A stretch of DNA of 64,000 nt, taken from positions 5,006-69,005 of the forward strand of contig JALWOZ010000008.1 of NCBI GenBank assembly GCA_027083345.1, given 5' to 3'. Below, piece by piece: positions 1 through 58,832 of this stretch; within the stretch, counting starts at the first letter, position 1, and every line of letters begins with the position of its first letter. The notes beneath the pieces were generated by a model, which did not search any database, had not been told where the DNA came from, and worked only from the letters and a program-made list of their open reading frames with translations. The stretch is from Candidatus Kaiserbacteria bacterium (GTDB taxonomy: Bacteria; Patescibacteriota; Minisyncoccia; Phycocordibacterales; UBA2100). The translations under genes were made by a program, and so were the position numbers.

Positions 1-1097
1 GGATAAATAACATACAAAAGAAGTTTGGCTACCAAGCTGTAACCATACCCCACATTACCAAAAGTGACTTATACAAAACCTCTGGGCATTGGGAGAAGTT
101 TGGAGAGGAGCTATTTAAAGTTAGGGGTCAAAGCAATGTGGAGTTTGTAATGAAGCCGATGAACTGCCCCCACCACACTCAAATATACGCCAGCTCTCCA
201 AAAAGCTATAAAGACCTCCCAATACGCTATGCAGAATCCACAATGGTCTACAGAGATGAGCAGGCAGGAGAGCTACTTGGCCTTGCCAGAGTGCGCTCTA
301 TAACTCAAGACGATGGGCATGTATTTTGTACTAAAGAACAAATAAACCAAGAGGTTAATAACATAATCTCTGTTATAAAAGAGTTTTACTCATCTCTAGG
401 TATGTTTGAAGATGGTAAGTTCTGGGTCTCTGTCTCTGTACGAGACAAGAATGATATGAGCAAATATTTAGGCGACCCAAAAATCTGGGACGATGCAGAG
501 GCAACTCTGGAGCAAATAGTAAAAGACAATAACTTTAAATACAAAGTAGTGCCCGGAGAGGCAGCCTTTTATGGGCCTAAAATAGACTTTATGTTTTTTG
601 ATGCACTGGGCAGAGAGAGGCAGTTAGCTACAGCTCAATTGGACTTTGTGATGCCAGAGAGGTTTGGGCTAGAGTACACAGACAAGAGTGGCAAAAAACA
701 AACTCCAGTGATGATACACCGTGCCATAGCCGGCTCTCTTGAGAGATTCTTAAGCATAATGATAGAGCACTTTGCAGGACACTTCCCCACTTGGCTCTCT
801 CCCGAGCAAGTACGCATAGTACCCGTTGCAGAGGCTCATAACCCATATGCTAATAAAATATTAACAGAATTATCTGATATAGACATAAGAGCTACTATAG
901 CAAATGCAACAGACTCATTAGGCAAAAGAATACGCAATAGCAAAAAGAGCAAGATCCCCTACATATTGGTATTAGGAGATAAAGAGGAAAAAGAGCAAAC
1001 AATAACTGCCGAATTGCCTAATGGCGAAAAACTAGAGATGCCGACAGCAGACTTTAAAAATCATATACTCAAAGAGGTGGGCACACCCACAAACTAA
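1..1097 (+). CDS. thrS: Threonyl-tRNA synthetase, C-terminal catalytic + anticodon-binding part (5' end outside window)
   Basis: Frame 3 is open from nt 3 and translates ...FGYQAVTIPHITKSDLYKTSGHWEKF...MKPMNCPHHTQIY... These are class II ThrRS motifs, and the ORF track shows 138..1097 in the same frame with stop at 1097. Confidence 0.9.
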   Translation, partial: INNIQKKFGYQAVTIPHITKSDLYKTSGHWEKFGEELFKVRGQSNVEFVMKPMNCPHHTQIYASSPKSYKDLPIRYAESTMVYRDEQAGELLGLARVRSITQDDGHVFCTKEQINQEVNNIISVIKEFYSSLGMFEDGKFWVSVSVRDKNDMSKYLGDPKIWDDAEATLEQIVKDNNFKYKVVPGEAAFYGPKIDFMFFDALGRERQLATAQLDFVMPERFGLEYTDKSGKKQTPVMIHRAIAGSLERFLSIMIEHFAGHFPTWLSPEQVRIVPVAEAHNPYANKILTELSDIDIRATIANATDSLGKRIRNSKKSKIPYILVLGDKEEKEQTITAELPNGEKLEMPTADFKNHILKEVGTPTN

Positions 1098-1909
1098 CTA
1101 TCAACAACACTACGAGTAAGCACAATCTTGGGGTACTCTCCGGACTTGTCTAATATTATTTCGTCTTTAAATGTCTCTTGTAGAGTCTCTACTGCTCTCT
1201 CTACTGCAGGGTGCTCTTGTGGTAGTTGCTCTTGTTTTTGCTCAGTATTTATAGTATCAGCACTTTTATCACCATCATCGTCTAATTGACTCAATACATA
1301 GTCTATATCTTTAACTACCTCTTTAACGGAGACCTCCTGTTGTGTATTGAGTTGGGCTACTTTTTGAGAGTTGGTACTACCACTATCTCTGGGGTGCCAA
1401 TCGTCATCTGGATTCACCCCATCAAAGTCAACTACAGCAAAATCCTCTTCAGAAAATTCGTCTGGCATCTGCCCAACCCTACTCACCTTAAGCTCCTCCT
1501 CTACCGCCCTTTTGACTCTCTCTTCAACCTCTGGGTCTATGGTTAGATTATTATACTCTCTATCCGCCTTTGGGTTCTCTTCTACAATATGCTCATTTAT
1601 TTGTATTTGTGGTGAAGGTGTAGGAATAGATACGGAAGTAGATATATACTCTGGGGTTTGATCAACAATAATATGCTCCATTCTGGTGCCCTTCTGCCCT
1701 ATGAAAATCTTAACCAAACCGGCAAATAACTTGTTAATGAGCCACAAATTACTCAAGATTATATGCGCTATAAAAAAGCTCCACAAAGCAAGAGCCACCC
1801 AAAAAAGAGAGTTATACACTGGCCCATAATCAAAGCCCATATTTTGTAATTGCACTATTGTGTCTACTGAGTTATCCATAAAAATATTGTACCATAAAAT
1901 TAAAAACAC
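1094..1909 (-). CDS. Hypothetical membrane protein with acidic C-terminal region
   Basis: 271-aa ORF. N-terminal TM segments (FWVALALWSFFIAHIILSNLWLINKLFAGLV) are followed by a D/E-rich tail. It overlaps the thrS stop by 4 nt. Confidence 0.45.
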   Translation of the reverse strand: MFLILWYNIFMDNSVDTIVQLQNMGFDYGPVYNSLFWVALALWSFFIAHIILSNLWLINKLFAGLVKIFIGQKGTRMEHIIVDQTPEYISTSVSIPTPSPQIQINEHIVEENPKADREYNNLTIDPEVEERVKRAVEEELKVSRVGQMPDEFSEEDFAVVDFDGVNPDDDWHPRDSGSTNSQKVAQLNTQQEVSVKEVVKDIDYVLSQLDDDGDKSADTINTEQKQEQLPQEHPAVERAVETLQETFKDEIILDKSGEYPKIVLTRSVVDS

Positions 1910-1987: not shown

Positions 1988-3322
1988 TTAAACCCTATAT
2001 AATCTCCTCCTGCGACTATCTAGACCTAGAATCGTCAATATGTTACCTCCTTGTGCGTAAAGAGCATATAGTGCGCTTAATGCCAATACTGCGTATAGTG
2101 CTAACCATATTGGGTCATCAAATCCTGTATATGGAGCATCTGATAGAGTAACTGTTTTATAAGTAGGTACTACTGAACTTGTTAGGGTTACTGTAGGATT
2201 AGTATATGTAGGTGTATATATCTGCTTATTTTGTACAGGGATGTATACATTACATGTCTTGCTTGCTCCCGTAGAAGTATCCCTCACTATGGCATAACAG
2301 GTTGTATTGCTCTGTGGGTAGATAGACCTTGTGCCTATCGCCGACACACGAGAGTTACCCAATACTCCTCCTGTACAATACACGTCTGTTGTGTCTCCAA
2401 GACTCGTAGCCCATGAGAGAGTTACTTTAGCTCCATTGTATCTGCTTGGAGTAGCATACATAGAACATTGAGGAGTAGAGACTGTGGTTGGAGGGTGGTA
2501 AACAGGATACACTGGTGTTACTGCTACTGGTGCTGGAGTTACTGTATTTGTGTTTACGTTATTATTAACATTGTTGTTCACTATATTTATTGGTGTTGCT
2601 GTTGGATATGTCGGAGCCGGTGGGTACACAATCACTGGAGGCTCGTAAACTGGCGGATTATATACTGGAGGCTCGTATACAGGAGGGTTGTAAGTAGGTG
2701 GCTCGTTATAATCTATAACTACAGGGGTATTATATGTAACTGAGGTACTATGGTCATCATAATCATATACTACTTTTGATGGTACGAACTTACCATACTT
2801 AGAGTATGTCTTCGTTTTAGTCTTTGAGCCGTAGTTGCTATAAGTCTTAGCTTTTGTCTTATAACCATAATTTGAGTATGTTTTTGTTTTAGTCTTTGAT
2901 CCGTAGTTAATGTACTTGGACTTTGTCTTAGTCTTATGTCCGTAATTAGAGTATGTCTTAACTTTAGGTTTTGAAGAACCGTAATTAGAGTATGACTTAG
3001 CTCTTGTTGTTGAACCGTAGTTTGAGTATGTTTTACCTAAAGACTTTGATGATCCATAATTAGAATATGTTTTTGTTTTAGACTTTGAGCCGTAGTTACT
3101 ATAAGACTTGGTTTTTGTTTTGTGCCCATAGCTTGAGTATGACTTAGCTCTAGATTTTGAACCATAATTTGAGTATGTTTTTACTCTAGACTTTGAGCCG
3201 TAGTTACTGTAAGTCTTTTGTAGAGACCCACCTGCACTAACCACACTAGCAGTGCTTAGCAACATAACAGGTATCATAAGCATACCTATCACTATTTTGT
3301 TTATGTTAATAATATTCTTCAT
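1988..3322 (-). CDS. Secreted repeat protein: signal peptide, ~14 tandem K-TYSNYGSK-x-K repeats, PPVY/NNNV low-complexity, Cys-bracketed domain, C-terminal DAPYTG + TM + RRRR tail (putative sortase substrate)
   Basis: Direct translation: N-terminal hydrophobic signal, the repeat block, then the shared Cys domain. It ends ...SDAPYTGFDDPIWLALYAVLALSALYALYAQGG...DSRRRRLYRV. Confidence 0.7.
   Translation of the reverse strand: MKNIININKIVIGMLMIPVMLLSTASVVSAGGSLQKTYSNYGSKSRVKTYSNYGSKSRAKSYSSYGHKTKTKSYSNYGSKSKTKTYSNYGSSKSLGKTYSNYGSTTRAKSYSNYGSSKPKVKTYSNYGHKTKTKSKYINYGSKTKTKTYSNYGYKTKAKTYSNYGSKTKTKTYSKYGKFVPSKVVYDYDDHSTSVTYNTPVVIDYNEPPTYNPPVYEPPVYNPPVYEPPVIVYPPAPTYPTATPINIVNNNVNNNVNTNTVTPAPVAVTPVYPVYHPPTTVSTPQCSMYATPSRYNGAKVTLSWATSLGDTTDVYCTGGVLGNSRVSAIGTRSIYPQSNTTCYAIVRDTSTGASKTCNVYIPVQNKQIYTPTYTNPTVTLTSSVVPTYKTVTLSDAPYTGFDDPIWLALYAVLALSALYALYAQGGNILTILGLDSRRRRLYRV
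2752..3215 (-). repeat. Tandem ~36-39 bp coding repeats (YSNYGSK unit)
   Basis: Periodic ...tatgagtat/gtttgagtatg... units are visible in the DNA. The protein shows 14 copies of TYSNYGSKxKxK. Confidence 0.7.
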
Positions 3323-3402
3323 GTTTTTTATATCTACTTACTTAATAATCCTCTTAATGCCTATATACTACCATATAATCTCCGGTATGTCAAGCTTTTT
3401 AT

Positions 3403-3447
3403 ATGAGAAAGGGCGGAATCATTGACTCAATAAGTTATTGAGTATAA
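3403..3447. terminator. Imperfect inverted repeat (gggcggaat...ttattgagt / actcaataa...tccgccc), possible terminator of the minus-strand small gene
   Basis: Arms gggcgga/tccgccc and actcaataa/ttattgagt lie directly 3' of the stop of the 3470..3805 minus-strand ORF. Confidence 0.3.
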
Positions 3448-3469
3448 CTCCGCCCATTCCCCCAATTTG

Positions 3470-3805
3470 TTATTCCCAGGGGCCTGGCGAGGCCCCGCCC
3501 CGCTCCAGGCATGTGTCAATCACATGCCTGATGTCCGGATTCCTCAGAAGGGAATCCTCAAATCGAAATCCGAAGCCCTCCATGAGGAGGACCCCACCAA
3601 TCGTACGGTCTTCGACTACGACCTCATAGTCGTAGTCCTCGTTGATAACCCCACCCGCCTCCTCGCGGGGGGTCATATCTGCCTCAATGAGGCAGGACTC
3701 GATATTCATCAAGTCCTGCCTCAGGTCCTCCTGCCCGAAGGCAGGGATGGCGGTCAGGGCGGTGGCGGTCAGGGCAGCGATGACGGTCAGGATGGTGATT
3801 TTCAT
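3470..3805 (-). CDS. Small secreted acidic protein encoded in a visibly GC-rich insert
   Basis: Minus-strand ORF MKITILTVIAALTATALTAIPAFGQ(signal)-EDLRQDLMNIESC... It is preceded by GGAGAGAG 6-8 nt upstream of the ATG at 3805. GC-rich runs (cccaggggcctggcgaggccccgccccgctcc; ggcggtggcggtcagggcagcgatgacgg) contrast with AT-rich flanks. Confidence 0.5.
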   Translation of the reverse strand: MKITILTVIAALTATALTAIPAFGQEDLRQDLMNIESCLIEADMTPREEAGGVINEDYDYEVVVEDRTIGGVLLMEGFGFRFEDSLLRNPDIRHVIDTCLERGGASPGPWE

Positions 3806-3856
3806 TTTCTCTCTCCGTTTTTGCAAGGCCGTTGTGGCCTTGCTTCAAAGGTAGGT

Positions 3857-3915
3857 GAGTATCTCTCAACCCACCTAATTAAAGCATTTAATATAACGCG
3901 CTAATTAGGTGAGTT
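3857..3915. repeat. 17-bp near-perfect inverted repeat (ctcaacccacctaattaa ... ctaattaggtgagttgag) with 18-nt spacer
   Basis: Seen directly in the sequence at the boundary of the GC-rich insert. Confidence 0.5.
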
Positions 3916-4048
3916 GAGGGATTACCGCCAAACACACATAACAAATTGGGTTCTAAAAGAACAGCTCAAGCAAGAGTACTCGTACTCTTGCTTGAGCTTG
4001 CATATTATAACATATTAGTTGTAGAGTGTCAATATTATACTCTAAAAA

Positions 4049-4783
4049 TTATGGCAACACCACCACCGTACTGCCTATACCTAATGTCTGCTGTACTAAG
4101 TCGGCATCTGACTTTAGAGCGTTAACACAACCATGTGAAGAATCTAAATATAAATATGTTTTTTGGACTTTTGTATCAGGATTTGTAAAAGTTCGGAAGT
4201 TAGGACTCCCATGAAAGGCTATACCACGCCTAGACTCAAAAAAGCTTGCCCACGCCATATTAGGCTTCTCCGGGTCACTAGCGGGGAACTCTCTAGATGA
4301 ATAATCCTCACCTTCTTGCCGAGTTATATTAAACTTACCCTCCGGAGTACTCAACCCAGCACTAGTCATAGCTGTGCCAACCGGCCCGGTACGCAAAAGC
4401 TTACCATCTTTAAAGAGCCAAAAACGATGGAATCTTTTACTTATTATAAGCCCTGTGTCTGCGCCGAGTATCTGCTCTGGGTCTGGCACCGGTATAGACT
4501 GTCGCATTATATCATCTACTAGTACCAAACTCCCCTGCTCTTTGCTATTTACAGGGTCTGGTACGATATCTGCCCACTCTGCCGGCTCCGGCACAGACTC
4601 ATTAGCTTCAGGCTCGTCTCCTAATACGAGTGATGCCAAAGTAGCACCTGCACCCGCCAAAAACCCCCGCCTAGATGTAGTCGATGCTCTACCAGTCTCT
4701 ATGTCTTTTGTTGAGTCGGTTTCCTCAACTTTTTTATTATGTTTATTATGCAATTGCTCCATATACAGAGCATTATAACACAA
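4049..4783 (-). CDS. L,D-transpeptidase (YkuD family) with twin-arginine (Tat) signal peptide
   Basis: TTSRRGFLAGAGATLASLVLG is a Tat motif (SRRGFLAG). The catalytic region has ...GIAFHGSP... and ...SSHGCVNA..., matching YkuD H-G-S / SHGC(V/I). The likely start is the internal M (MEQLHNK, ~4762). Confidence 0.7.
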   Translation of the reverse strand: MCYNALYMEQLHNKHNKKVEETDSTKDIETGRASTTSRRGFLAGAGATLASLVLGDEPEANESVPEPAEWADIVPDPVNSKEQGSLVLVDDIMRQSIPVPDPEQILGADTGLIISKRFHRFWLFKDGKLLRTGPVGTAMTSAGLSTPEGKFNITRQEGEDYSSREFPASDPEKPNMAWASFFESRRGIAFHGSPNFRTFTNPDTKVQKTYLYLDSSHGCVNALKSDADLVQQTLGIGSTVVVLP

Positions 4784-4810
4784 AAATATTTATATCTGCT
4801 ATATACCTTT

Positions 4811-5635
4811 TTATTTAGAACTCTTAACCTTACTCATTATAAATATAAGCAATATAATCAAAACTAAGAATACTACTCCTACGGGTATTGCTATCTTTTT
4901 AAATGCTTCTCCAAACAATCCCCCCGAACCAGAACCATTAGTAGGATCTGTGCTTGTAGCAGTTGGGTCTGTACTGGTACTTATCGGATCCACCTCTACC
5001 TTAACCTTAACTATAGCTCCACATGTCCCTGTTATACCAGCATCATTTAAGACCGTCATGTTGTATGCTGTGTCTTTAGTAGGAGTTACTATACGAGAGC
5101 CACTCACAGTATTAACATGTCCTATACCGCTATCTATAAAGGCTACTGTAGCTCCTATAGTCGTCCACTGCAACTCTATAGCCCCACTTGGGGTTATGGC
5201 GGGGACAAGTGAGCATACCGGCTTAGGCAACTGATCATCACCAACCTCTACTACAGCTCCACATTGCTTTTTATTAACCAATCTATAGGCAACTCTACTA
5301 CAAGTTGTACAAACCTCTCCTGAGTCATCTGTATCTACACTTGAGGCTCTAGCACTAGAGTATGAATAATTATATGGATTAGAGTATGTATAAGTCGCAT
5401 TACTGTCAGGGGTAGAATAATTATCATAATAATACCCGCTACTACTCTGTGTATACACTACATGAGGCTGATAAACCTGCTGAGCAGGCATATTATTGGT
5501 ATTTATATTATTATTTACATTATTATTTACATTATTATTTGCTATATTAACTTGTGCAAAGCTAATATTGGGCAAAGACCCTATAGAAGTCAAGACAAAT
5601 ACTAAACCAAATAATACGCTGTTTATGTTTTTCAT
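4811..5635 (-). CDS. Secreted surface protein, paralog of 1988..3322 and 5738..6292 (shared Cys-bracketed domain), C-terminal TM anchor
   Basis: Signal peptide MKNINSVLFGLVFVLTSIGSLPNISFAQ; NNNVNNNVN low-complexity as in the 1988 protein. The domain C-x-LVPAITPSGAIELQWTTIGA...GIGHV...IVTPTKDTAYNMTV...GTCGAIV is shared. C-terminal FKKIAIPVGVVFLVLIILLIFIMSKVKSSK. Confidence 0.65.
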   Translation of the reverse strand: MKNINSVLFGLVFVLTSIGSLPNISFAQVNIANNNVNNNVNNNINTNNMPAQQVYQPHVVYTQSSSGYYYDNYSTPDSNATYTYSNPYNYSYSSARASSVDTDDSGEVCTTCSRVAYRLVNKKQCGAVVEVGDDQLPKPVCSLVPAITPSGAIELQWTTIGATVAFIDSGIGHVNTVSGSRIVTPTKDTAYNMTVLNDAGITGTCGAIVKVKVEVDPISTSTDPTATSTDPTNGSGSGGLFGEAFKKIAIPVGVVFLVLIILLIFIMSKVKSSK

Positions 5636-5737
5636 ATAAGTATTATAGTACCATATAAATAGCTACGTGTCAATACTCCTGCCTATATTACCGCGTCAAA
5701 AACAGTTATAATAGGATGCGCTTAACAAAAAATTATA

Positions 5738-6292
5738 TTAGACAAATAATGTTTTACGGGCATTAGTAGCTACAAAACCTGCAGTTAACAACATAACTAA
5801 CAAAAATAGTGTGTATATAACATTCTCTGCCATACCTGTATAAGGCGCATTACCTAAGTTGACACTACTACCTGCCGGATAGATAGCTAGAGTCTGTAAT
5901 ACAACATTGGGATTAACTGCGCTGATAGTACCATCTCCATTAACAACAGCTATGGTAGAGCAATACCCTCCCTCTCCTTGTGAGTTCCAGCTATGCATTG
6001 TGTATATAGTGTATTTATCAGGTGATACAAACATCTCTCCATCTGGAGCTATATTACCTATACCATTGTCTAAACTGGCAAATATAGCACCCTCCGTAGA
6101 TGTCCACTTTAGTTTAGCCATATTAACTCCATTGCCCATAGGTACTAAAGTTATAGTACAACTTGGCACTAGAGATCCTTTATTCTTTGAAGCGTTAACT
6201 ACACCAAAGGAACTAAATAAAACCAAAGTAGCTATTAAAGCCATGCTACTAAATTTACCTGCTAAAATTAAAAAGTTATTCATAATGCGCAC
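5738..6292 (-). CDS. Secreted surface protein paralog with C-terminal NAPYTG + TM + basic tail (putative sortase substrate)
   Basis: Signal anchor; domain CTITLVPMGNGVNMAKLKWTSTEGA...GIGNIAPDGEMFVSPDKYTIYTM...GYCSTIAV. It ends ...NLGNAPYTGMAENVIYTLFLLVMLLTAGFVATNARKTLFV. Confidence 0.65.
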   Translation of the reverse strand: MRIMNNFLILAGKFSSMALIATLVLFSSFGVVNASKNKGSLVPSCTITLVPMGNGVNMAKLKWTSTEGAIFASLDNGIGNIAPDGEMFVSPDKYTIYTMHSWNSQGEGGYCSTIAVVNGDGTISAVNPNVVLQTLAIYPAGSSVNLGNAPYTGMAENVIYTLFLLVMLLTAGFVATNARKTLFV

Positions 6293-6378
6293 TTATAATA
6301 AATTATTAAATAATGTTATTAATGATATAACCATAGATAGTACATAAAGTCAATACTTACTAACGTACCTTACTCACA

Positions 6379-7059
6379 TTATTGCTCTAAAGATACATCT
6401 CTAGGATAACTGCCAACAAAGTCGGCTGTAACTATCCACCTATCAGCCTTTTTGCCTAAGGTATTACAAGTAACCAATGTAATCTGCTGTACTCCTGGCT
6501 TTGGAGTAAAGTCTATTATAGCGTCGGAGGCCTTCCTCATCTCTTTATTGCTCACTGTATATACATATTCTTTATCTCCACTTATAAGCTTTATAACATT
6601 ACCCTCCTCTAAATGTGGGACCTGATTAAAAGCTTGATACATCTTATTGTGCACCGTACGATAGCTAGTAGAATGGCCTAAAATAAGCATATTACCGTCT
6701 CTACCTAAAGTACCTGAACCCGGATAACGGATAATAGATGTTAACAACTCTTGGTTCAGCACTTTTACATCTGTTGTATTCGGATTAGTTAAAGGTAAAT
6801 CCACTCCAAAGGCAGGCATAGTGAGTCTGGTCGGTAGGATAACCCTAGTCTCAACCGGTTTGAGCTTCTCTTGTTCTGCCTTTTTCTGCTCTTCCTCTAA
6901 TCTTTTTACAACTTCTGCTCTCTCTTTATTGCTCAGAGACCCGTCTACATAATAAGGTACAAAACCTACAGAATTTAATACTGTTAAAGATAATACAAAT
7001 ACCCACGCAGTAACAACTATATATAAAAATCCACTAGGTTTGTTTCTACCTGCTATCAT
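6379..7059 (-). CDS. Sortase family transpeptidase (class D/E-like)
   Basis: N-terminal TM anchor, then NMLILGHST (His motif), QITLVTCNTLG (TLxTC catalytic Cys) and a downstream R (ADRWIV). This is the canonical sortase triad arrangement. Confidence 0.8.
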   Translation of the reverse strand: MIAGRNKPSGFLYIVVTAWVFVLSLTVLNSVGFVPYYVDGSLSNKERAEVVKRLEEEQKKAEQEKLKPVETRVILPTRLTMPAFGVDLPLTNPNTTDVKVLNQELLTSIIRYPGSGTLGRDGNMLILGHSTSYRTVHNKMYQAFNQVPHLEEGNVIKLISGDKEYVYTVSNKEMRKASDAIIDFTPKPGVQQITLVTCNTLGKKADRWIVTADFVGSYPRDVSLEQ

Positions 7060-7190: not shown

Positions 7191-8228
7191 ATGACGGACA
7201 ATAATACATATGAGGCAGAGAGTCGTGGAGTAGCAATGAACATTTTTGCCATTCTTGGATTTATAGCAATTCTACTCGCAGGACTTTGGGCTACCATGCA
7301 ACTGGTCAGGCAAGTATCTAACATATCTACCTCTTTTAATAAGCCGGGTATTACTCTTCCGTTTTTAGCAGATAAGAGCAAGTTGGCTTTGGTAGACAAT
7401 AGAGATGCTATACAATCTGGAGAGAGTACTAAAATAGCTTGGACACTTGGCAAAAATAAGAGAGAGGCTGAGGGTAGTATTGTTACCTTATCTTATGCTT
7501 GTAAGTATGGGGTATACTTGAAGGTATTAAACCCAACTACAGACGAGTATAATGCCTTACCATGTAATGCATCATATAACGTACCGGCCACAGACTCGGA
7601 TATCTCTATTATACCGATACTAACAGACAATAAAGATAGCGAGGTTGCATTTTCTCTGACTTATACACCAACTAAAGGTTCTGACGAATCTGTAAACGGA
7701 ATACTAAAAGTAGTGAATAAGAGTGCTCTAACTACAAAAACAACTACTGAAAATCCTAATTCTAAAGGTACTATAACTCCAAAAACTACAGATAAGGAAG
7801 GAATAGTGGGCCACAGACAAGTTGTAAACCCTCCTAAAAAGACTATAAAGAAAACCATAAAACAAGTTGTTGTGCCCGTGAGGAGATCCAACCCTAATGG
7901 GCTACCAGATCTTACAGTACGTATATTGCAAATTATTCCTATAAACAGCACAGGTAAGGTGTCTGTAAAGCTAGAGGTGTCTAACATAGGCACAAAAGTA
8001 GCAAAAGGTTGGACATTAACCGCAACCCTACCAACTAATCCTGCATATACATATACATCAGGTACTCAAAGCGCACTATATGCCGGGGAGCGAGCTGAGA
8101 TGCTGTTGACCTTTGACAAGGTTAAGCCAGGTGCAAATGCATTACTATTAACCGTAGATGCATCAAACTCAATAACGGAATCTTCAGAGACGAATAATTC
8201 TGCATCTGGGATTATTACTACTCAATAA
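7191..8228 (+). CDS. Membrane-anchored protein with C-terminal CARDB-like domain
   Basis: N-terminal TM (IFAILGFIAILLAGLWATMQLV). The C-terminal region has LPDLTVRI...VSNIGTKVAKGWTL...GERAEM...LLTVDASNSITESSETNNSAS, matching the CARDB pattern (DL.V...N.G......VD..N.V.E.NE.NN). Confidence 0.55.
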   Translation: MTDNNTYEAESRGVAMNIFAILGFIAILLAGLWATMQLVRQVSNISTSFNKPGITLPFLADKSKLALVDNRDAIQSGESTKIAWTLGKNKREAEGSIVTLSYACKYGVYLKVLNPTTDEYNALPCNASYNVPATDSDISIIPILTDNKDSEVAFSLTYTPTKGSDESVNGILKVVNKSALTTKTTTENPNSKGTITPKTTDKEGIVGHRQVVNPPKKTIKKTIKQVVVPVRRSNPNGLPDLTVRILQIIPINSTGKVSVKLEVSNIGTKVAKGWTLTATLPTNPAYTYTSGTQSALYAGERAEMLLTFDKVKPGANALLLTVDASNSITESSETNNSASGIITTQ

Positions 8229-25997: not shown

Positions 25998-26069
25998 GGT
26001 CCTATAGTATAATGGTTAGTACATCGCCCTCTCACGGCGGAGATCGGGGTTCGACTCCCCGTAGGATCA
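25998..26069 (+). tRNA. tRNA-Glu (anticodon CUC)
   Basis: Folded by hand. Acceptor GGTCCTA/TAGGATC (one G-U), D-arm with GG loop, anticodon stem TCGCC/GGCGG with loop CT-CTC-AC, 4-nt variable region, T-arm CGGGG-TTCGACT-CCCCG, discriminator A, no encoded CCA. Confidence 0.8.
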
Positions 26070-27756
26070 CATCAAGGGATTTTTGTCCCATATACTCATC
26101 AGATAGCCTGAAAATAGGCGACATTTTTGGTGTTCCATTAAGTATTTCTTGGTATGTTGGTGTTTCTTCAAATACAAGACCAAATAATGCCTGTTGAGTA
26201 CCTAAATCGTCATTATTTATAAGCATTTCTACTGGGTGTTCCATTAGATGTTTTGCATATCGTACAAATGCCTTTATTTTCTTCTCACTAACCTCAATAG
26301 TATTGCGTTGTGTCTCTGCCAATAGTATATCTTTTTCTAGTTGGTCTATTTCTTCCTCTTTCTTTTTTCTAACAACAGCACTCTCTATCATATCAAGTGC
26401 TTGAAGTTTTACCGCTTGTTGACTTTTTAGGTCTGCAACATTTCTATTTATTTGTGATGCTTCTTGCACTATGTCTTTTTCTCGTGCTCTATATCTTTTA
26501 AGGAGTACATACTCTAATGAGTTTGCAAAGTCATCTTCAAACTTCATATTTTCAACAAAGTGCTTTATATTTTTCTCAAACTCTTCTTTTGGTATACGAT
26601 TGTATTTATGTGCTCTCTTGCCAGTTTTATAACCCCCACAGTGGTATGCTGGGTGCTTTTTGCCAAGTTTACCTCTTGAAGCACTTCCCAATAATGGCTT
26701 TTTGCACTCTTGGCATAATAAAAACTTGAATGGATAATCTGGATTATTTTTATTACGTTGCTTCTGCCACGGAGAATAGTCTTTGAGTATTTTTATAGAA
26801 CCATCTTCATTCTCTTGTATAAAAACCTTTCCGTGGTTTGCTTTATTAAATAGTTCAATGGAAACTAAGCCGTCATATTGAGTACGTATAGGCTTATTGT
26901 GTGTCCATCTTTCAGTACGAATGCCAGCATAGATGGTTCTTTGTATGTATCTTTGCAGTTGCTTTACTGTAAGTTTATTCCCACCAACACTTCCGATTAT
27001 ATGCATTTTATCTTTACTCCATCTATTCATCTTAGGTGTTCTGAAACCCATTGCATTTAGTTTCTTAACAATCTCTTTATCTGGGACACCTCGTGCACGC
27101 AACTCAAACATTTTTATAAAATAATGTGCCCTGTCTGGGCTTGGAACTGCAATAAATCTCTTCTTTCCGTTAATAAGTACCTTTTTATTAGCATATCCAT
27201 CGTTTGCTCTGCGTACCGTATAACCGTCTTGTATAGTTCTTATTGAAGCACCAACCATTCTAGTTAAAATACCAGATACGTCATCTTCTGCCCTTTGTGC
27301 CTCCATAAGTTGTGCACTTGCAGTGGCAGAATGCTTACTCCAAGAGTACTCAAATCCTAAATCACCAAGTGTATTTATTTCAGGTTGTATTATTCCATAC
27401 GTGTCTACCAGTTCTACACCCAAACTTCTAAGACTGTCTTTCATACTTTGATAAGTAACAGCACCGTCTCTTGTAATCCTATCTATACTTTTTATTAAAT
27501 AATAGTGTACTTGTATACCTTTTGATTTTAACTCTTTTATGTATGTAAGTATCTGCTTAAAATCCTCTCTTTCTTCTGCACGTCCAGAATATACCTTACT
27601 AAATATATTAAGTGTATTCCATTTTTTTGCATCAGCATAACTTGTACACATCATCTTTTGCTCGTCTAAACCACCACCAGTGAGTTGTTTCTGGGAACTA
27701 ATCCTACAGTCTATTATGCAGTTTTTTTGCTCTTCTGGTTTTTTTAGAGTATTCAT
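26032..27756 (-). CDS. Large serine recombinase (phage-type serine integrase)
   Basis: N-terminal resolvase domain (CRISSQKQ with catalytic Ser; DRITRD), recombinase domain, Cys-rich zinc ribbon (CQECKKPL...YHCGGY) and a C-terminal coiled-coil. The last ~12 codons overlap the 3' end of the tRNA-Glu. Confidence 0.85.
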   Translation of the reverse strand: MNTLKKPEEQKNCIIDCRISSQKQLTGGGLDEQKMMCTSYADAKKWNTLNIFSKVYSGRAEEREDFKQILTYIKELKSKGIQVHYYLIKSIDRITRDGAVTYQSMKDSLRSLGVELVDTYGIIQPEINTLGDLGFEYSWSKHSATASAQLMEAQRAEDDVSGILTRMVGASIRTIQDGYTVRRANDGYANKKVLINGKKRFIAVPSPDRAHYFIKMFELRARGVPDKEIVKKLNAMGFRTPKMNRWSKDKMHIIGSVGGNKLTVKQLQRYIQRTIYAGIRTERWTHNKPIRTQYDGLVSIELFNKANHGKVFIQENEDGSIKILKDYSPWQKQRNKNNPDYPFKFLLCQECKKPLLGSASRGKLGKKHPAYHCGGYKTGKRAHKYNRIPKEEFEKNIKHFVENMKFEDDFANSLEYVLLKRYRAREKDIVQEASQINRNVADLKSQQAVKLQALDMIESAVVRKKKEEEIDQLEKDILLAETQRNTIEVSEKKIKAFVRYAKHLMEHPVEMLINNDDLGTQQALFGLVFEETPTYQEILNGTPKMSPIFRLSDEYMGQKSLDVILRGVEPRSPP

Positions 27757-41797: not shown

Positions 41798-44749
41798 TTA
41801 GAATCCGGAGATACCGGCGAAGGGGTCTGTTGGTTGTATCGGATTCTGTGGCTCTTTCTTTTTATATCTCTCTTGTATCTCTGCCTCTACCTCCTCTCTC
41901 GGTCTACCATATTTATTATATGACTCTTGTTTCAACTCCTCTATATGAGAGTAATCGGGTTCGTCGACTACAGGGAAAGTGATTATATCAAACGGAGCTG
42001 TCGGAGAGCCCCCAACGAGCATTTTTAAGTAAGCATTCCTATTCGGTAAACCTGTAATATCTCCAGCATTAAACTCAGGTTGAAACTCTTTCTCCAAAAA
42101 CTCTGCATCCTCTTGAGAGACCCTAAAGATGCATTTAGTACCGACATTACCAAATACAGCATCTCGTATTTCATCACTAAGTTGCTTTATGTATTGGTGG
42201 GCTAAATTAAGACTTAAAGCATATTTACGAGCCTCAGAGAGTATTGTAGCGATACTAGGTGTTGTAAAATTTTGGAATTCGTCTATATATAAGTAGAAGG
42301 GGTGCCTTTCTTCTTCAGGTAGATCTACCCTTGCAAGAGCAGACTGGAGTATCTTACTTACAAATATAAGTCCTAAAAGCTCTGCATTAATATCTCCAAT
42401 ACGACCCTTAGAGAGATTGACGAGTAATATTTTCTTATTGTTCATTATGTCAGATATACTAAAGGCACTCTTAGACTGAGCGATAATAGGACGCATTATC
42501 TCATTACCCATAAAGAGGTCTGTCTTAGCAGTGATATATGGCACTATATTCTCTAAGCTTGCTTCACCGCCCGCCTTCTCTGCTATCTCCTCCCAGAATT
42601 GGTTTACAACAGGGTTTTGACTGCGGGCTAAACAACTATGGCGAAATTCCTTATCAGAGAGCACTCTGGAGATATCTCCTATCGTAGCCGTACCATGCTC
42701 CATGCCCTCAAGTACCAACATAGCAGAGTTACGGAAGTATTGCTCAAACATAGGCCCCATACTCTCGGGACTCTTCTTGCCAAATATCTGCATGAAAATC
42801 TGGAAGAGCTCATTAACTACAAAAGTCTTTTCTTTTGGATCGTCCTTATTAAACTCCATAAAATTAAGACCCATAGGCATATCTGTATAACCAGGATCAA
42901 AATATATTACATCATTATGTCTATTTTCTGGCACGCTAGCTAATACATCCATAATATCTGAACCGTGCGGATCTATATAACAACAACCCTCTCCATTATT
43001 AATATCTTGTATTATCATCTGCTTCATCAAGAATGTTTTACCTGTACCGGTCTGGCCTATCTCATAAAAATGCCTCATCCTATCTATGCTACCAAATTTA
43101 ACTATGGTCTCATTAACCCCAAACTTATTCTTACCTAAGACTATGCCTTCTGTGTCTCCTACATCTATAGGAGCTGGTTTGTGTTTTGCCTTGTTTTGTT
43201 TTAACTCACGACTCGTTGATACAGCCTGCCCAGTTAAGTGATACATAGTTGTGAGCTCCTCTATAGATAAAGGGATTTGTTGTGAAGATGCAAAAATTCT
43301 CATAATAAATCCTCTCAGAGATTTGTTCAATTTAGCTCCTTTTAATCGCTTCCATACTATTACATTGCCTTGCCCTTTATCAAACTGATTAAATGTACTT
43401 GTTATATCCTCAAGAATCTCAACAGCACGAGGCCTAGTTGAGGCACTGGCAACTGCACGCACCGTTACGGGCACAACTCTTTTTGAGGATTTCTCAGTTA
43501 TAAGGTCTAGAGTTATCTGGTCTACAACATTAGACTGGGCATCCTCCCCTCTAGGAGACCTTATTGTATTTTTAAAATCAACCCATACCTTACTCCACAC
43601 TCCTCTATTCTTAGCTATGGCATCCTCGACGGTGTCTCCTTTGCGGATAGCATCTATTATTTTTTTATATTTTTTATTTATACTTGTCCCCTTATTGCCT
43701 ATGACAAATTGTAAAGATGCTCCTTCTCCATGTTTCTGCAATTTAGAAAAGGCAGACAAAATCACATTCAAAGGATCATGTGTAAACTCTTTATAAACTT
43801 TAAGCGGATATATCTCATCTCTACCCAACTGCGCCTCAGCACAAGCATCTTCTCCAGAGTTATTAAAGATATTATAATCATTACGTTGCTCCTCTATAAC
43901 AGCGTCAGGGAATATAGACAAAAAATGCTTCTCAAACATACCTTTTTTAGTTACTGGAACCGATACATAGAAAATAGCCTCCTCACTCCCCTCACTGACG
44001 GCTACCTCCACAGTAAATACTTTATTATTCTTCTTAGCTAATCCAAGAAAGTCCTTCCCCCCGTCGGTAGTAGTTAACAACCCTAGATACAATTGCTCCA
44101 TTGCGCCTAATAACTTCTCTAGCTCTTGTGCCTTATCACTCTCCTCTTTACTCTTAGGGGAGGAGACAGACACCTTGTACAATGTCATATGTAATGCTTG
44201 CCATATTTCCCCCGTATGTCGCAAATCTTTAACAGGCATACCCTCTTGTACATATTGAGCTAATATTCTATGTAAGTCATCCTCTATATGGTGATTACCT
44301 ATCTTTTTAGCCACTATTAAGGCATTCTTAATTCCCCTATCACGTGCTAAAGCCAACAGCTCATCTATTTGCCTATCATGCTCCTCTTGCTCTAAGCCTA
44401 TAGCCACTCCGGCCGACTCGTACTCCCCCATGGCATAATCATCTTGCAACACATTTTGCACAGGCTCTACTGAGTAGTCTTTGATAACTCTTTTATGTGC
44501 TCTGTCTGACTCAAACTTATTACCACCTAAATCTAAATTATCTGGATGGGCTTGCAATTTCTCTTGGTGAGCCACCTTAGCCCTGAGATACTCCAACTCC
44601 TCTTGAGGGGAACTGAACCTATTGTCTACCGAATCTTTCTTTATGTTCACCTGCCCAGAGGCCGAATCCCTAACCTTTTTATTAGTATGCTCAGGTGGCG
44701 TAACAGTCTCATTTAGTATTATTGGTTCTTGTGCAATCTCCTTAGACAT
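41798..44749 (-). CDS. TraD/TraG/VirD4-like P-loop ATPase (type IV secretion coupling-protein family) with large N-terminal domain
   Basis: Walker A YEIGQTGTGKTFLM; LYIDEFQNFTTPSIATILSEARKYALSLNLAHQYIKQL (DE Walker B plus RK..QS..QL) as in TraD/VirD4-type ATPases; 983 aa. Confidence 0.5.
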   Translation of the reverse strand: MSKEIAQEPIILNETVTPPEHTNKKVRDSASGQVNIKKDSVDNRFSSPQEELEYLRAKVAHQEKLQAHPDNLDLGGNKFESDRAHKRVIKDYSVEPVQNVLQDDYAMGEYESAGVAIGLEQEEHDRQIDELLALARDRGIKNALIVAKKIGNHHIEDDLHRILAQYVQEGMPVKDLRHTGEIWQALHMTLYKVSVSSPKSKEESDKAQELEKLLGAMEQLYLGLLTTTDGGKDFLGLAKKNNKVFTVEVAVSEGSEEAIFYVSVPVTKKGMFEKHFLSIFPDAVIEEQRNDYNIFNNSGEDACAEAQLGRDEIYPLKVYKEFTHDPLNVILSAFSKLQKHGEGASLQFVIGNKGTSINKKYKKIIDAIRKGDTVEDAIAKNRGVWSKVWVDFKNTIRSPRGEDAQSNVVDQITLDLITEKSSKRVVPVTVRAVASASTRPRAVEILEDITSTFNQFDKGQGNVIVWKRLKGAKLNKSLRGFIMRIFASSQQIPLSIEELTTMYHLTGQAVSTSRELKQNKAKHKPAPIDVGDTEGIVLGKNKFGVNETIVKFGSIDRMRHFYEIGQTGTGKTFLMKQMIIQDINNGEGCCYIDPHGSDIMDVLASVPENRHNDVIYFDPGYTDMPMGLNFMEFNKDDPKEKTFVVNELFQIFMQIFGKKSPESMGPMFEQYFRNSAMLVLEGMEHGTATIGDISRVLSDKEFRHSCLARSQNPVVNQFWEEIAEKAGGEASLENIVPYITAKTDLFMGNEIMRPIIAQSKSAFSISDIMNNKKILLVNLSKGRIGDINAELLGLIFVSKILQSALARVDLPEEERHPFYLYIDEFQNFTTPSIATILSEARKYALSLNLAHQYIKQLSDEIRDAVFGNVGTKCIFRVSQEDAEFLEKEFQPEFNAGDITGLPNRNAYLKMLVGGSPTAPFDIITFPVVDEPDYSHIEELKQESYNKYGRPREEVEAEIQERYKKKEPQNPIQPTDPFAGISGF

Positions 44750-57367: not shown

Positions 57368-58162
57368 TTAGTTTGAGCCATCTTTCTTTCTCTTCCAAAT
57401 TAAGAAGAATCCAGTAAGAACGATAAAGATACCTAACCAGTAATACCACTTCATTCCTCCATTACTACTCTTAGGATTTGCTGCGGCCGCTAACTGATCT
57501 GTAGATGTGCTTGTAGTAGCTGTCTCCGTTGTGGTAGTAGCCTCAGCAGTTGTTGTAGCTATTGTTGTTGTAGTTTTGCTCAGGCTCTTTTTACCTGTTG
57601 TATTGCCCTTAGCTCCCGTAGTTGGAGTCTTTGGCAGAGAAGGTGGAGTTATAGTAGCATCTGACTTAGGTTGAGTCGTAGGCACCACAGGTGCCGGAGC
57701 GCTCACTGTAAACACTGCACTAGGAGATGTACCGGTCTTATCTGCGTTATTATTGTCCAACAATTTAGCACTTGAAGAGACAGATACAGTAGTTTGTCCA
57801 TCTGCCTTAGCTTTAAATGTGATTGTCGCAACCTTTGTAGATGCTGTAATGCCCGGATTAAAAGCTACATTATCTACAACCGTACCTGCGGTGTTATCTG
57901 TCTTGGATCCTACGTGAGCCAAGATATTACCACCTGAGGTGGGTGTGTAAGCAGTAACCTCTAACTTACTAGCTGGGAAATTGAGCATGACTTTAGTGGC
58001 AGTAATAGTCTCACCAGCTCCGGGATTAACATACACAGAAGTTGTTATAGTATCTCCTGTATGGTAGTTACCAACAGCAGGTACGAAGGTGAAGTTAGCA
58101 GCTTGAACACTCATCGGTGCAACTATTGCCAATGCTAAGGCTATAATAAATGTCTTTTTCAT
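57368..58162 (-). CDS. Secreted cohesin-like domain protein with T/P-rich linker and C-terminal TM anchor
   Basis: Signal peptide. The ~130-aa domain FTFVPAVGNYHTGDTITTSVYVNPGAGETITATKVMLNFPASKLEVTAY...ATITFKAKADGQTTVSVSS follows the cohesin beta-sandwich pattern. C-terminal WYYWLGIFIVLTGFFLIWKRKKD. Confidence 0.5.
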   Translation of the reverse strand: MKKTFIIALALAIVAPMSVQAANFTFVPAVGNYHTGDTITTSVYVNPGAGETITATKVMLNFPASKLEVTAYTPTSGGNILAHVGSKTDNTAGTVVDNVAFNPGITASTKVATITFKAKADGQTTVSVSSSAKLLDNNNADKTGTSPSAVFTVSAPAPVVPTTQPKSDATITPPSLPKTPTTGAKGNTTGKKSLSKTTTTIATTTAEATTTTETATTSTSTDQLAAAANPKSSNGGMKWYYWLGIFIVLTGFFLIWKRKKDGSN

Positions 58163-58202
58163 AATTTTTCTTTAATTTTAATTAATCTTAATACTTTAAT
58201 AA

Positions 58203-58805
58203 TTATCCTGTCCATGTTGTAGACAAAGTATTAAGATCAAATATGTCTACTTTACCATCACAGTTGGTGTCTCCGGTACTGTCAGTAGCTGTTGAGCTAC
58301 CAAAGTTTGCAGATAATATATTAAGATCAAATATGTCTACTTTACCATCGTTGTTAAAGTCAGCATCAGATGTACAAGATGCAGGTGGCACAACACCTCC
58401 ACCACCACCTCCCCCACCACCACTGGCAGGAGCAGATCCTGAGTTTATAGTATAAGAGTAAGATGCCACACCAGACTCGGCTCCTCCAGGGTAACATGCT
58501 ATAGCCTTAAGAGTAAGTGATGCAGACACATTTACTGCTCCACTGTAGAGTGTGCCTGCTCCAGAACAACTTGGTGTTGAGCCATCAGTTGTGTAGTAGA
58601 TAGCTGTTGAGCCTGTGCTTGTGAGTGTTACGCTTTGCGCTCCGGTGTATGTCCCCGCCGGCGGGTTTGCCAACGGGTTGGACATTACCGTGCCTGTTAC
58701 ACCTGTTTGTACTCCCGTTGAGAGCGTACCGGTCTGCTCTGAGGCAAATACTGGTGTAGAAGTAATTGCGAGGAGCAGAAATGTTGTGAATATATATTTC
58801 TTCAT
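58203..58805 (-). CDS. Secreted protein with CHB_HEX_C-like (Fn3-like) domain, poly-Gly linker and C-terminal dockerin-like double repeat
   Basis: PPAGTYTGAQSVTLTSTGSTAIYYTTDGSTPS...; GGGGGGGGG linker; DFNNDGKVDIFDLNILSANFG and DTNCDGKVDIFDLNTLSTTW match the D.N.DG.V...D...L pattern of dockerin calcium-binding repeats. Confidence 0.6.
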   Translation of the reverse strand: MKKYIFTTFLLLAITSTPVFASEQTGTLSTGVQTGVTGTVMSNPLANPPAGTYTGAQSVTLTSTGSTAIYYTTDGSTPSCSGAGTLYSGAVNVSASLTLKAIACYPGGAESGVASYSYTINSGSAPASGGGGGGGGGVVPPASCTSDADFNNDGKVDIFDLNILSANFGSSTATDSTGDTNCDGKVDIFDLNTLSTTWTG

Positions 58806-58832
58806 AATCTGTTTTTAATTATCTCCCCACTT

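Follow-up and report, generated by a model that had tools for sequence, protein, structure and literature searches.

The question raised by this locus is whether a sortase gene and the adjacent genes of secreted proteins, two of which end in an APYTG-containing tail, encode an enzyme together with its own substrates. Sortases have been reported from over half of the genomes of CPR/Patescibacteria (PMC6744442). The signals and substrates of these enzymes have not been previously described; nothing relevant was found in the literature on sortase signals in CPR or Patescibacteria, and no mention of APYTG, VPYTG or IPYTG was found in the literature searched on sorting signals. The 64,000-nucleotide stretch of DNA analyzed here (the window) is best explained as containing a dedicated sortase–substrate cluster of an uncultured Parcubacteria (Paceibacteria-type) bacterium, in which proteins A and C are probably sorted by means of APYTG, while a third protein, B, is held in the membrane.

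The gene at 6379..7059 on the minus strand encodes a 226-aa protein, which in a Pfam search matched the Sortase family PF04203 with 64.9 bits (cut-off 26.6; E 7.8e-18). The alignments showed that residues H129 (in LGHS), C198 (in TLVTC) and R207 (in DRW) are invariant in 15 of 15 orthologs and in 36 of 36 wider homologs. Together with the Pfam match, this bears out the initial annotation, which had recognized a sortase from its His, TLxTC and Arg motifs: the product is a true sortase with a His-Cys-Arg triad. Its N-terminus is a membrane anchor, followed by a conserved juxtamembrane motif, GFVPYY[IV]DG, and by the catalytic domain. The best match to a PDB sequence had an E value of 4e-9. The closest NCBIfam model was that of class E (NF033747), with 49.8 bits versus a cut-off of 160, while the class C model NF033745 gave 33.1 bits (cut-off 160), and the class D models NF033746 and NF058671 gave 20.8 bits (cut-off 165) and 22.4 bits (cut-off 140), respectively. 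Hence, no characterized class could be assigned to the sortase, and its specificity cannot be inferred by homology, which counts against the explanation preferred here.

The proposed substrates are encoded on the same strand as the sortase. Protein A (1988-3322, minus strand, 444 aa) carries a signal peptide and about 12 repeats rich in K, S and Y (YSNYGSKxKxK), then a Pro-rich region, a INIVNNNVNNNVNTNT motif, a four-Cys module (nt 2234-2479) and a tail with APYTG at nt 2123-2137. It ends in ...TVTLSDAPYTG-FDDPIW-LALYAVLALSALYALYA...-RRRR-LYRV, where the signal L-S-D-APYTG precedes a transmembrane (TM) helix and the RRRR cluster. Protein C (5738-6292, minus strand, 181-184 aa) has a signal peptide followed by one Ig-like module bracketed by Cys (nt 5942-6172) and, after a linker, by L-G-N-APYTG (nt 5834-5848), the TM helix and ARK; its end reads ...SVNLGNAPYTG-MAENV-IYTLFLLVMLLTAGFVA-TNARKTLFV. 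The tails of both proteins thus have a P-x-T-G core, a spacer of 4-6 residues, a hydrophobic helix of about 20 aa and a basic cluster, which is the arrangement that had been read from the sequence at the outset. The hydrophobic segment and basic tail are at the extreme C-terminus in A, in C and in all C orthologs, where the motif is followed by 30-44 residues. Protein B (4811-5635, minus strand, 274 aa) has a signal peptide, a INIANNNVNNNVN motif, a Cys-rich segment, the module (nt 5003-5230), a TM helix and the tail KVKSSK; it contains no PxTG, and its C-terminus is instead a plain, conserved TM anchor. The DPNTG and NPGTG strings of some B orthologs were considered as signals and rejected, as they are not conserved.

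The window's motif is A-P-Y-T-G, not the L-P-x-T-G pentapeptide, and the curated LPXTG models did not recognize it: the anchor model PF00746 gave a sub-threshold 14.4 bits with C (cut-off 20) and no match with A, while TIGR01167 matched neither protein.

To place these tails in a wider context, 85 related loci, 80 from a genome scan and 5 fetched around close orthologs, were compared together with the window. The scan was seeded with the 15-sequence sortase alignment, since the 36-sequence version was too diverse to serve. The set contained 79 sites of xPxTG followed by a TM helix, of which 65 read [VILMA]PYTG, and all 65 of these were on the sortase strand and downstream of the sortase, many of them within 100 bp. 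When only the 50 Parcubacteria loci with at least 3 kb of sequence downstream of the sortase were considered, a same-strand gene with [V/I/L/M]PYTG and a TM helix was found directly downstream of the enzyme gene in 44, and three more carried VPATG, IPATG or VPSTG. The absence of such tails from genomes with orthologous sortases, which would have spoken against a sorting signal, was therefore not observed. The extended consensus of the tag was L-S-Q-[IV]-P-Y-T-G-[LF]-[DE]; among 206 distinct contexts, Tyr was present in 91% and Leu at position -3 in 96%, and Lys or Arg followed the TM helix in 184. The residue before the pentapeptide was usually Q, E or N. The relatives read [VILM]-P-Y-T-G, with Leu at position 1 in only about 7%.

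The same comparison bears on whether APYTG could stand before a hydrophobic C-terminus in two unrelated proteins by chance. The window itself offers two instances only, with no further APYTG-type tails in its 64 kb beyond A and C, but 17 orthologs of C and 3 of A keep the tag at the corresponding position, and P, T and G are invariant in the C orthologs. Because of this conservation, the strand and placement of all 65 related sites and the 206 contexts, coincidence can be set aside as extremely improbable. The alanine itself is rare: it was found at position 1 in none of 88 related loci and in one other database protein, while the other C orthologs have Val (13 VPYTG and 1 VPHTG), Leu or Met. 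The initial proposal of [DN]APYTG as the family motif did not survive this comparison, and Leu at -3 is the conserved upstream residue. Judged by the alignments, APYTG can be regarded as the form taken in this genome by a signal, [V/I/L/M]PYTG, that is shared across the clade, and, as the [V/I]PYTG form is found in dozens of related genomes, it represents a real but moderate variant of known anchoring. Calling it a non-LPXTG signal was correct in that position 1 is not Leu, but it overstated the difference, as P, T and G are intact and Val, Ile or Tyr at position 1 is established for class C pilin signals, such as those of S. pneumoniae RrgA (YPRTG), RrgB (IPQTG) and RrgC (VPDTG) (PMC5640630).

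Proteins A, B and C have in common a Cys-bracketed module of about 75 aa with the features of a beta-sandwich fold. The pairwise similarity of B and C was clear in BLASTP (E 2e-8, 36% over 77 aa), while that of A and B was weaker (E 0.006). Profile comparison using hhalign linked the C family to the B family (96.3%, E 1.7e-9) and to the A family (97.9%, E 5.7e-13, in an alignment that takes in the tail). The shared module, whose failure under formal alignment would have spoken against the initial reading, therefore holds under both methods (96-98% in hhalign). Both bracketing cysteines are invariant in the 17 C orthologs, but the two-Cys description does not extend to the A family, which keeps four conserved cysteines. 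The suggestion that the module is lineage-specific was not upheld, as it occurs as a tandem repeat in at least 4,133 clusters at 50% identity and is very common in Patescibacteria. In Pfam searches A, B and C gave no PKD or Ig-family match to the module at E 0.1 or better, and six repeat-rich proteins carrying it gave no significant match and none at the gathering threshold; neither Pfam nor NCBIfam models were found for the module, for the PYTG-TM segment or for the cytoplasmic region described below.

The sortase and its neighbors form a conserved unit. In close relatives the gene order CARDB(-), sortase, C, B, A, D, ThrRS(-) is kept, and the adjacency of sortase and tagged genes extends across about 50 genomes. 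The membrane-anchored CARDB-domain protein (7191..8228, plus strand; Pfam CARDB E 1.2e-9) is encoded divergently from the sortase, and a divergent CARDB homolog was present less than 600 bp from the sortase in 61 of 76 loci. Genes of wall synthesis in the window include MurJ, SLT and YkuD. The tagged neighbors in relatives bear typical sortase-substrate domains, which are SpaA_2, Cna_B, DUF11 and PKD, and there was also a weak isopeptide-domain match among them. These data agree with the idea of a substrate family with its dedicated sortase, although not with one defined by a lineage-specific module.

The following steps are proposed for the window's proteins. A and C would be exported by Sec, and their C-terminal helix and basic cluster would then retain them in the membrane, where the membrane-anchored sortase would recognize the extended signal L-x-x-[A/V/I]-P-Y-T-G, with Ala here and Val or Ile elsewhere. 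Cys198 would cut between Thr and Gly, and the acyl-enzyme would be resolved by an amine of a peptidoglycan precursor, so that C with its single Ig-like module, or A with its repeats and module, would become covalently attached to the wall, while the third paralog, B, would stay in the membrane via its anchor. We infer that cleavage is at T|G, that the wall is the acceptor and that this sortase tolerates Ala at position 1.

This scheme resembles that of the housekeeping sortase SrtA of S. aureus, which acts on LPXTG cell-wall sorting signals. Both involve a membrane-anchored Cys transpeptidase with a His-Cys-Arg triad, and substrates with a signal peptide, P, T and G at the same positions of the pentapeptide, a hydrophobic helix and a basic cluster. 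On the other hand, position 1 here is Ala, or Val/Ile in relatives, the X position is fixed as Tyr, the signal reaches upstream to Leu -3 and downstream to [LF][DE], the tails escape the Pfam and TIGRFAM LPXTG models, and the substrates are encoded beside the enzyme. Class E sortases of Actinobacteria are housekeeping-type enzymes of organisms with non-Gly cross-bridges, and read LAXTG signals with Ala in place of Pro at position 2. Class E gave the best NCBIfam score of the window's sortase, if far below its cut-off, and both systems use a variant pentapeptide; however, Pro is invariant here and it is position 1 that varies. Dedicated pairs of a sortase and a single target are also known, for example a marine proteobacterial sortase and its adjacent target (TIGR03784/TIGR03788). 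These are similar in having one sortase beside its own few substrates with a lineage-specific signal, but no sequence relationship to them was detected, and the phylum and substrate domains differ.

The class C systems raise the alternative that the sortase is a class C-like polymerase, which joins C and/or A into a pilus-like fiber through a Lys nucleophile instead of anchoring monomers. The hydrophobic, non-Leu position 1 typical of pilin signals (PMC5640630), the clustering of enzyme and substrates, the Ig-like nature of the latter, and the SpaA_2, Cna_B and weak isopeptide-domain matches in relatives are all shared with such systems, and the small protein C has a nearly invariant Lys62, while the VPYY motif at the sortase N-terminus could act like a lid. 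Yet Lys62 is replaced by Arg in one ortholog, inspection of A and C by eye revealed no YPKN-type pilin motif or E-box, both proteins are far smaller and simpler than pilins, the cluster contains a single sortase, and the class C model was not matched (33 bits versus 160). Polymerization is therefore considered quite unlikely.

A further alternative comes from the relatives, most of which have the motif and TM helix inside the protein, followed by 100-400 residues that include a conserved cytoplasmic region. The initial description of the tails as classic tripartite signals thus applies to the window's clade, but not to most relatives. Conservation extends well past the pentapeptide, over a 41-aa motif+TM module (GLDLGPxGTxLYWxxLIxWSxAxAYL). 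A profile of the cytoplasmic region found no match among PDB sequences, and its C-terminal domain is predicted to have a clamp-loader collar fold (domain III, an oligomerization domain). An internal motif with a strongly conserved TM segment and cytoplasmic residues is atypical of sortase signals, and this counts against the preferred explanation. The same is true of protein D (1094-1909, minus strand, about 261-271 aa), which has a short N-terminus, LQNMG, a TM helix (FDYGPVYNSLFWVALALWSF), and a cytoplasmic tail that is acidic and ends in GEYPKIVLTR. D orthologs have [VL]PYTG after only about 10 residues, hence with no cargo, while in the window's D the motif has decayed to LQNMG and the TM helix is kept. 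D matched the long-tail family over the 41-aa module (hhalign 97.7%, E 1.6e-12), and on this similarity it corresponds to the membrane and cytoplasmic part of the long PYTG proteins found in other Parcubacteria.

These features could mean that PYTG and its TM helix form an uncleaved juxtamembrane/membrane unit in a family of type I membrane proteins, serving, for example, in complexes with the sortase-like protein or other partners. In that case the likeness to a sorting signal would have nothing to do with proteolysis. The conservation beyond the pentapeptide, the cytoplasmic region, and the motif-bearing but cargo-less D orthologs alongside a D that keeps the TM helix without the motif are in its favor. 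Still, we consider this unlikely, as invariance falls precisely on the sortase core P-x-T-G, a catalytically intact sortase lies immediately upstream in most loci, and the tails of A and C in this clade are short and classical and lack a cytoplasmic domain.

Sorting by cleavage can also be reconciled with the internal position of the motif, if the signal lies in the middle of a precursor. The sortase cut would then yield a wall-linked ectodomain of Ig-like repeats and a membrane/cytoplasmic fragment with its own function, for example in assembly, signaling or scaffolding at the inner face, and in the window's lineage this system would have undergone a natural fission, with A and C as classical short-tailed substrates and D as the free-standing membrane/cytoplasmic half that no longer needs the motif. 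In the window's clade one gene encodes the ectodomain (A) and another the TM/cytoplasmic half (D), which fits two halves that are normally parted. This extension is tentative, and we regard it as possible but somewhat doubtful; if true, a sortase would act here, in a role not described before, as the protease that matures transmembrane proteins built of two parts. In most lineages the signal is internal and stands before a conserved cytoplasmic region, and cleavage at such a site, if confirmed, would be unusual for a sortase. More generally, the consensus L-x-x-[VI]-P-Y-T-G with a TM helix predicts, from sequence, wall-anchored surface proteins of uncultured, probably episymbiotic bacteria, and it also flags a very abundant Ig-like repeat for which neither Pfam nor NCBIfam yielded a model.

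Widespread cargo-less forms, suggested by many database proteins of 270-330 aa with a short N-terminus, PYTG, a TM helix and a tail, were also considered and were rejected after three loci had been inspected. The short forms in L087 and L088 are gene-calling truncations of 740-935-aa ORFs, and frame changes interrupt that in L086. Only in the window's clade does D stand as a true gene of its own.

Two further genes lie between A and B. A YkuD L,D-transpeptidase with a Tat signal (4049..4783, minus strand; Pfam YkuD E 8e-13; TIGR01409 20.6 versus a cut-off of 16.7) is present, among the loci compared, only in the window and in L001, L003 and L005. A small secreted protein of 118 aa (3470..3826, minus strand) is encoded in a GC-rich islet (0.54), and homologs occupy the corresponding position in L005 and L084. 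The two genes together make up an accessory cassette, which lies within the cluster but outside its conserved core and has a GC content of 0.49-0.54 versus a background of 0.37.

The sortase gene (6379-7059) belongs to a minus-strand run of seven ORFs, bordered by the convergent ThrRS gene (138-1097, plus strand) and by a divergent gene encoding a membrane-anchored CARDB-domain protein (7191-8228, plus strand). The other genes of the run, all on the minus strand, encode the paralogous secreted proteins C (5738-6292) and B (4811-5635), a YkuD L,D-transpeptidase with a Tat signal (4049-4783), a small secreted protein (3470-3826), the third paralog A (1988-3322), and the separate membrane/cytoplasmic protein D (1094-1909). 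The synteny around the sortase is deep: the gene order sortase, C, B, variable genes, A, D is maintained in close relatives, the cluster ends with ThrRS in 43 loci, and in 61 of the 76 related loci a divergent CARDB gene is located at most 600 bp away from the sortase. The CARDB-domain protein may be a functional partner.

The sortase matched Pfam PF04203 (64.9 bits, E 7.8e-18), and its residues H129, C198 (in TLVTC) and R207 are invariant across 15 orthologs and 36 wider homologs. None of the curated sortase class models was reached, with 49.8 bits for class E and 33.1 bits for class C against a cut-off of 160, and 20.8 bits for class D against 165, while the closest solved sortase was a distant sequence match (E 4e-9). 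Right behind the N-terminal TM helix of the sortase (residues 32-40; 6940-6970) there is a juxtamembrane motif, GFVPYY[IV]DG, in which P is conserved in 36/36 homologs, V in 34/36, Y36 in 27/36 and Y37 in 30/36 (sortase homolog alignment A2). This segment is similar to VPYTG, the signal of the substrates, and may act as a lid or pseudo-substrate.

Both A and C contain a Sec signal peptide, and their C-termini consist of APYTG, a 4-6 residue spacer, a hydrophobic helix of about 20 residues and a basic cluster. The initial annotation, which described a sortase accompanied by APYTG tails, was correct as written; no further tails of this type were found among the other ORFs of the whole 64 kb. The Pfam LPXTG anchor model scored C below threshold (14.4 bits, cut-off 20), and B ends with a conserved TM helix and KVKSSK, without PxTG. 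The N-terminal part of A (2790-3205) is made of about 12 tandem K/S/Y-rich units, YSNYGSKxKxK, with DNA periods of 36-39 and 75 nt; at the same place its orthologs have other Tyr/Ser/Asp-rich repeats (SDYSSY, SDWSTYDT), which indicates fast evolution of this region. The A and B families also have in common an invariant low-complexity motif, INI[VA]NNNVN(N/T)NVNTNT (2540-2590 in A, 5500-5560 in B; hhalign 94%, E 1.2e-7).

The comparison across genomes used 80 loci with sortase relatives, out of 187 confirmed relatives and all from Patescibacteria/Paceibacterota-type MAGs, and five added loci around close orthologs, in which every ORF was scanned for xPxTG with a hydrophobic segment behind it. 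The related loci and the window together contained 79 such sites, which were VPYTG (36), IPYTG (23), LPYTG (3), APYTG (2, both in the window), MPYTG (1) and scattered other spellings. The 65 PYTG sites share the strand of the sortase and lie downstream of it without exception, many less than 100 bp away, and chance is an extremely improbable explanation for the window tails. Among the 50 loci whose sequence extends 3 kb or more beyond the sortase on its downstream side, 43 have a PYTG gene, and a looser hydrophobicity cut-off added a 44th (L009). Three more have VPATG, IPATG or VPSTG instead, and the last three, which belong to a distinct sortase subclade, contain no tagged gene. The presence of the tails beside orthologous sortases strongly supports the predicted pairing of the sortase with the tagged neighbour genes.

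In 17 C orthologs the P, T and G of the signal are invariant and Y nearly so, while position 1 is V (13 VPYTG, 1 VPHTG), L or M, with Ala in the window only. The consensus over 206 distinct contexts was [VLI]-Y-L-S-Q-[IV]-P-Y-T-G-[LF]-[DE], with 96% Leu at -3 and 91% Tyr, residues that the search pattern did not prescribe, and a basic residue followed the TM helix in 184/206. The signals of the two window proteins, TLSDAPYTGFD and NLGNAPYTGMA, both match this consensus. On the other hand, the literal string [DN]APYTG, proposed as the mark of the family, turned out to be genome-specific, with one further APYTG among 120 tail homologs.

These sequence patterns suggest that the sortase probably cuts A and C after the Thr of their PYTG and attaches them to the wall, with Ala at position 1 as a tolerated local variant. 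Because MurJ, an SLT transglycosylase and YkuD are encoded in the window, peptidoglycan is a plausible acceptor in this bacterium. In other lineages the tagged neighbours contain domains typical of sortase substrates, namely SpaA_2, Cna_B, DUF11, PKD and He_PIG. The relatives with SpaA_2/Cna_B, as well as V or I at position 1, could also point to pilus-type polymerisation, but no pilin motifs were seen in A or C and the class C score is low (33.1 bits versus 160), so that this explanation is quite unlikely. The PYTG signal has the same P-x-T-G core as LPXTG, from which it differs by the fixed Tyr and extended flanks. V, I and Y are established position-1 residues in pilin signals of class C (IPQTG, VPDTG and YPRTG; PMC5640630). 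Hence, the label "non-LPXTG" was too strong, and the signal is an LPXTG-like variant. In the papers searched, none of the strings APYTG, VPYTG and IPYTG was mentioned as a sorting signal, and sortase signals of CPR or Patescibacteria were not described; Méheust et al. 2019 (PMC6744442) reported only that a sortase family is present in over half of the CPR genomes. The feature is real, and the window case is a clade-wide [V/I]PYTG sortase signal of Parcubacteria in a rare Ala form with minimal single-module substrates.

The Cys-bracketed Ig-like module of about 75 residues, said to be common to A, B and C, held in pairwise comparison (B versus C, E 2e-8; A versus B, E 0.006) and in profile comparison of the C family with the B family (96.3% probability, E 1.7e-9) and the A family (97.9%, E 5.7e-13). 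The bracketing Cys pair is invariant in 17 C orthologs, and the A family has four conserved Cys. The module is not lineage-specific as had been supposed, since the C-family profile, run against 1.84 billion cluster representatives, matched 4,133 proteins at E ≤1e-3 and 1,277 at ≤1e-10, with up to 47 tandem copies per protein. No curated model for it was found, and six repeat-rich module proteins gave no significant Pfam match. The module is real and among the commonest Patescibacteria surface repeats, and A, B and C represent its minimal form, with one copy each.

Most other lineages differ in that the motif and TM helix do not stand at the C-terminus: 100-370 residues follow them in the loci, and a median of 191-265 (maximum 407) in database matches. 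The usual architecture there is a signal peptide, Ig-like repeats, a Gly-rich linker, PYTG, the conserved TM helix and a cytoplasmic region. The most interesting lead, this internal position of the signal ahead of a conserved cytoplasmic region, comes from outside the window. Window D matched the conserved 41-residue motif and TM segment, PYTGLDLGPxGTxLYWxxLIxWSxAxAY (97.7% probability, E 1.6e-12), with LQNMG in place of the [VL]PYTG of its orthologs, which start M-x(8-10)-[VL]PYTG-FDYG-TM and continue with an acidic tail (in the sortase loci L081, 15311-16144; L084, 14976-15653; L005, 10574-11266). These orthologs are apparent cargo-less sortase substrates. The window clade has classical short-tailed A and C and a separate D gene, an arrangement that we infer to be a fission of the usual long protein. 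A hint of such a fission is that, in L081, L084 and the window, the stop codon of A is in frame with the D ORF. An uncleaved juxtamembrane module is an unlikely alternative, favoured by the conservation of the TM helix, by the cytoplasmic region and by the D orthologs without cargo; the fission reading fits an ectodomain and a membrane half that normally work apart, as cleavage by the sortase would leave them. Apparent cargo-less short PYTG forms in the database were gene-calling truncations of 740-935-aa ORFs in 2/3 loci inspected. Long PYTG genes of GC-rich Parcubacteria are often mis-called (L087, 4072-6879; L088, 4494-6716; L086, 4304-6999), with an antisense ORF annotated and the real gene shortened to its last ~290 codons, and hence public protein sets include many short PYTG-TM-tail proteins that are artefacts.

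The ORF at 3470-3826 and the L,D-transpeptidase are located in a GC-rich islet (3400-4783; 0.49-0.54 versus 0.37). Since this transpeptidase occurs only in the window and three related loci (L001, L003, L005), it was probably acquired as a cassette. The islet also contains a perfect TTGACA-17-TATAAT site (4032-4004, minus strand) and, after it, a hairpin whose stem is 16 bp long (3998-3963). An integrated mobile element at ~26 to 46 kb is suggested by a large serine recombinase and a coupling protein of the TraG/TrwB-like type (26032-27756 and 41798-44749). Next to each other in the region 57368-63980 are a protein with a cohesin domain and a C-terminal TM anchor (57368-58162) and a 1715-aa surface protein containing fn3/PhoD_N; neither has a PxTG tail, and the GC content rises to 0.44 from ~58 kb onward.
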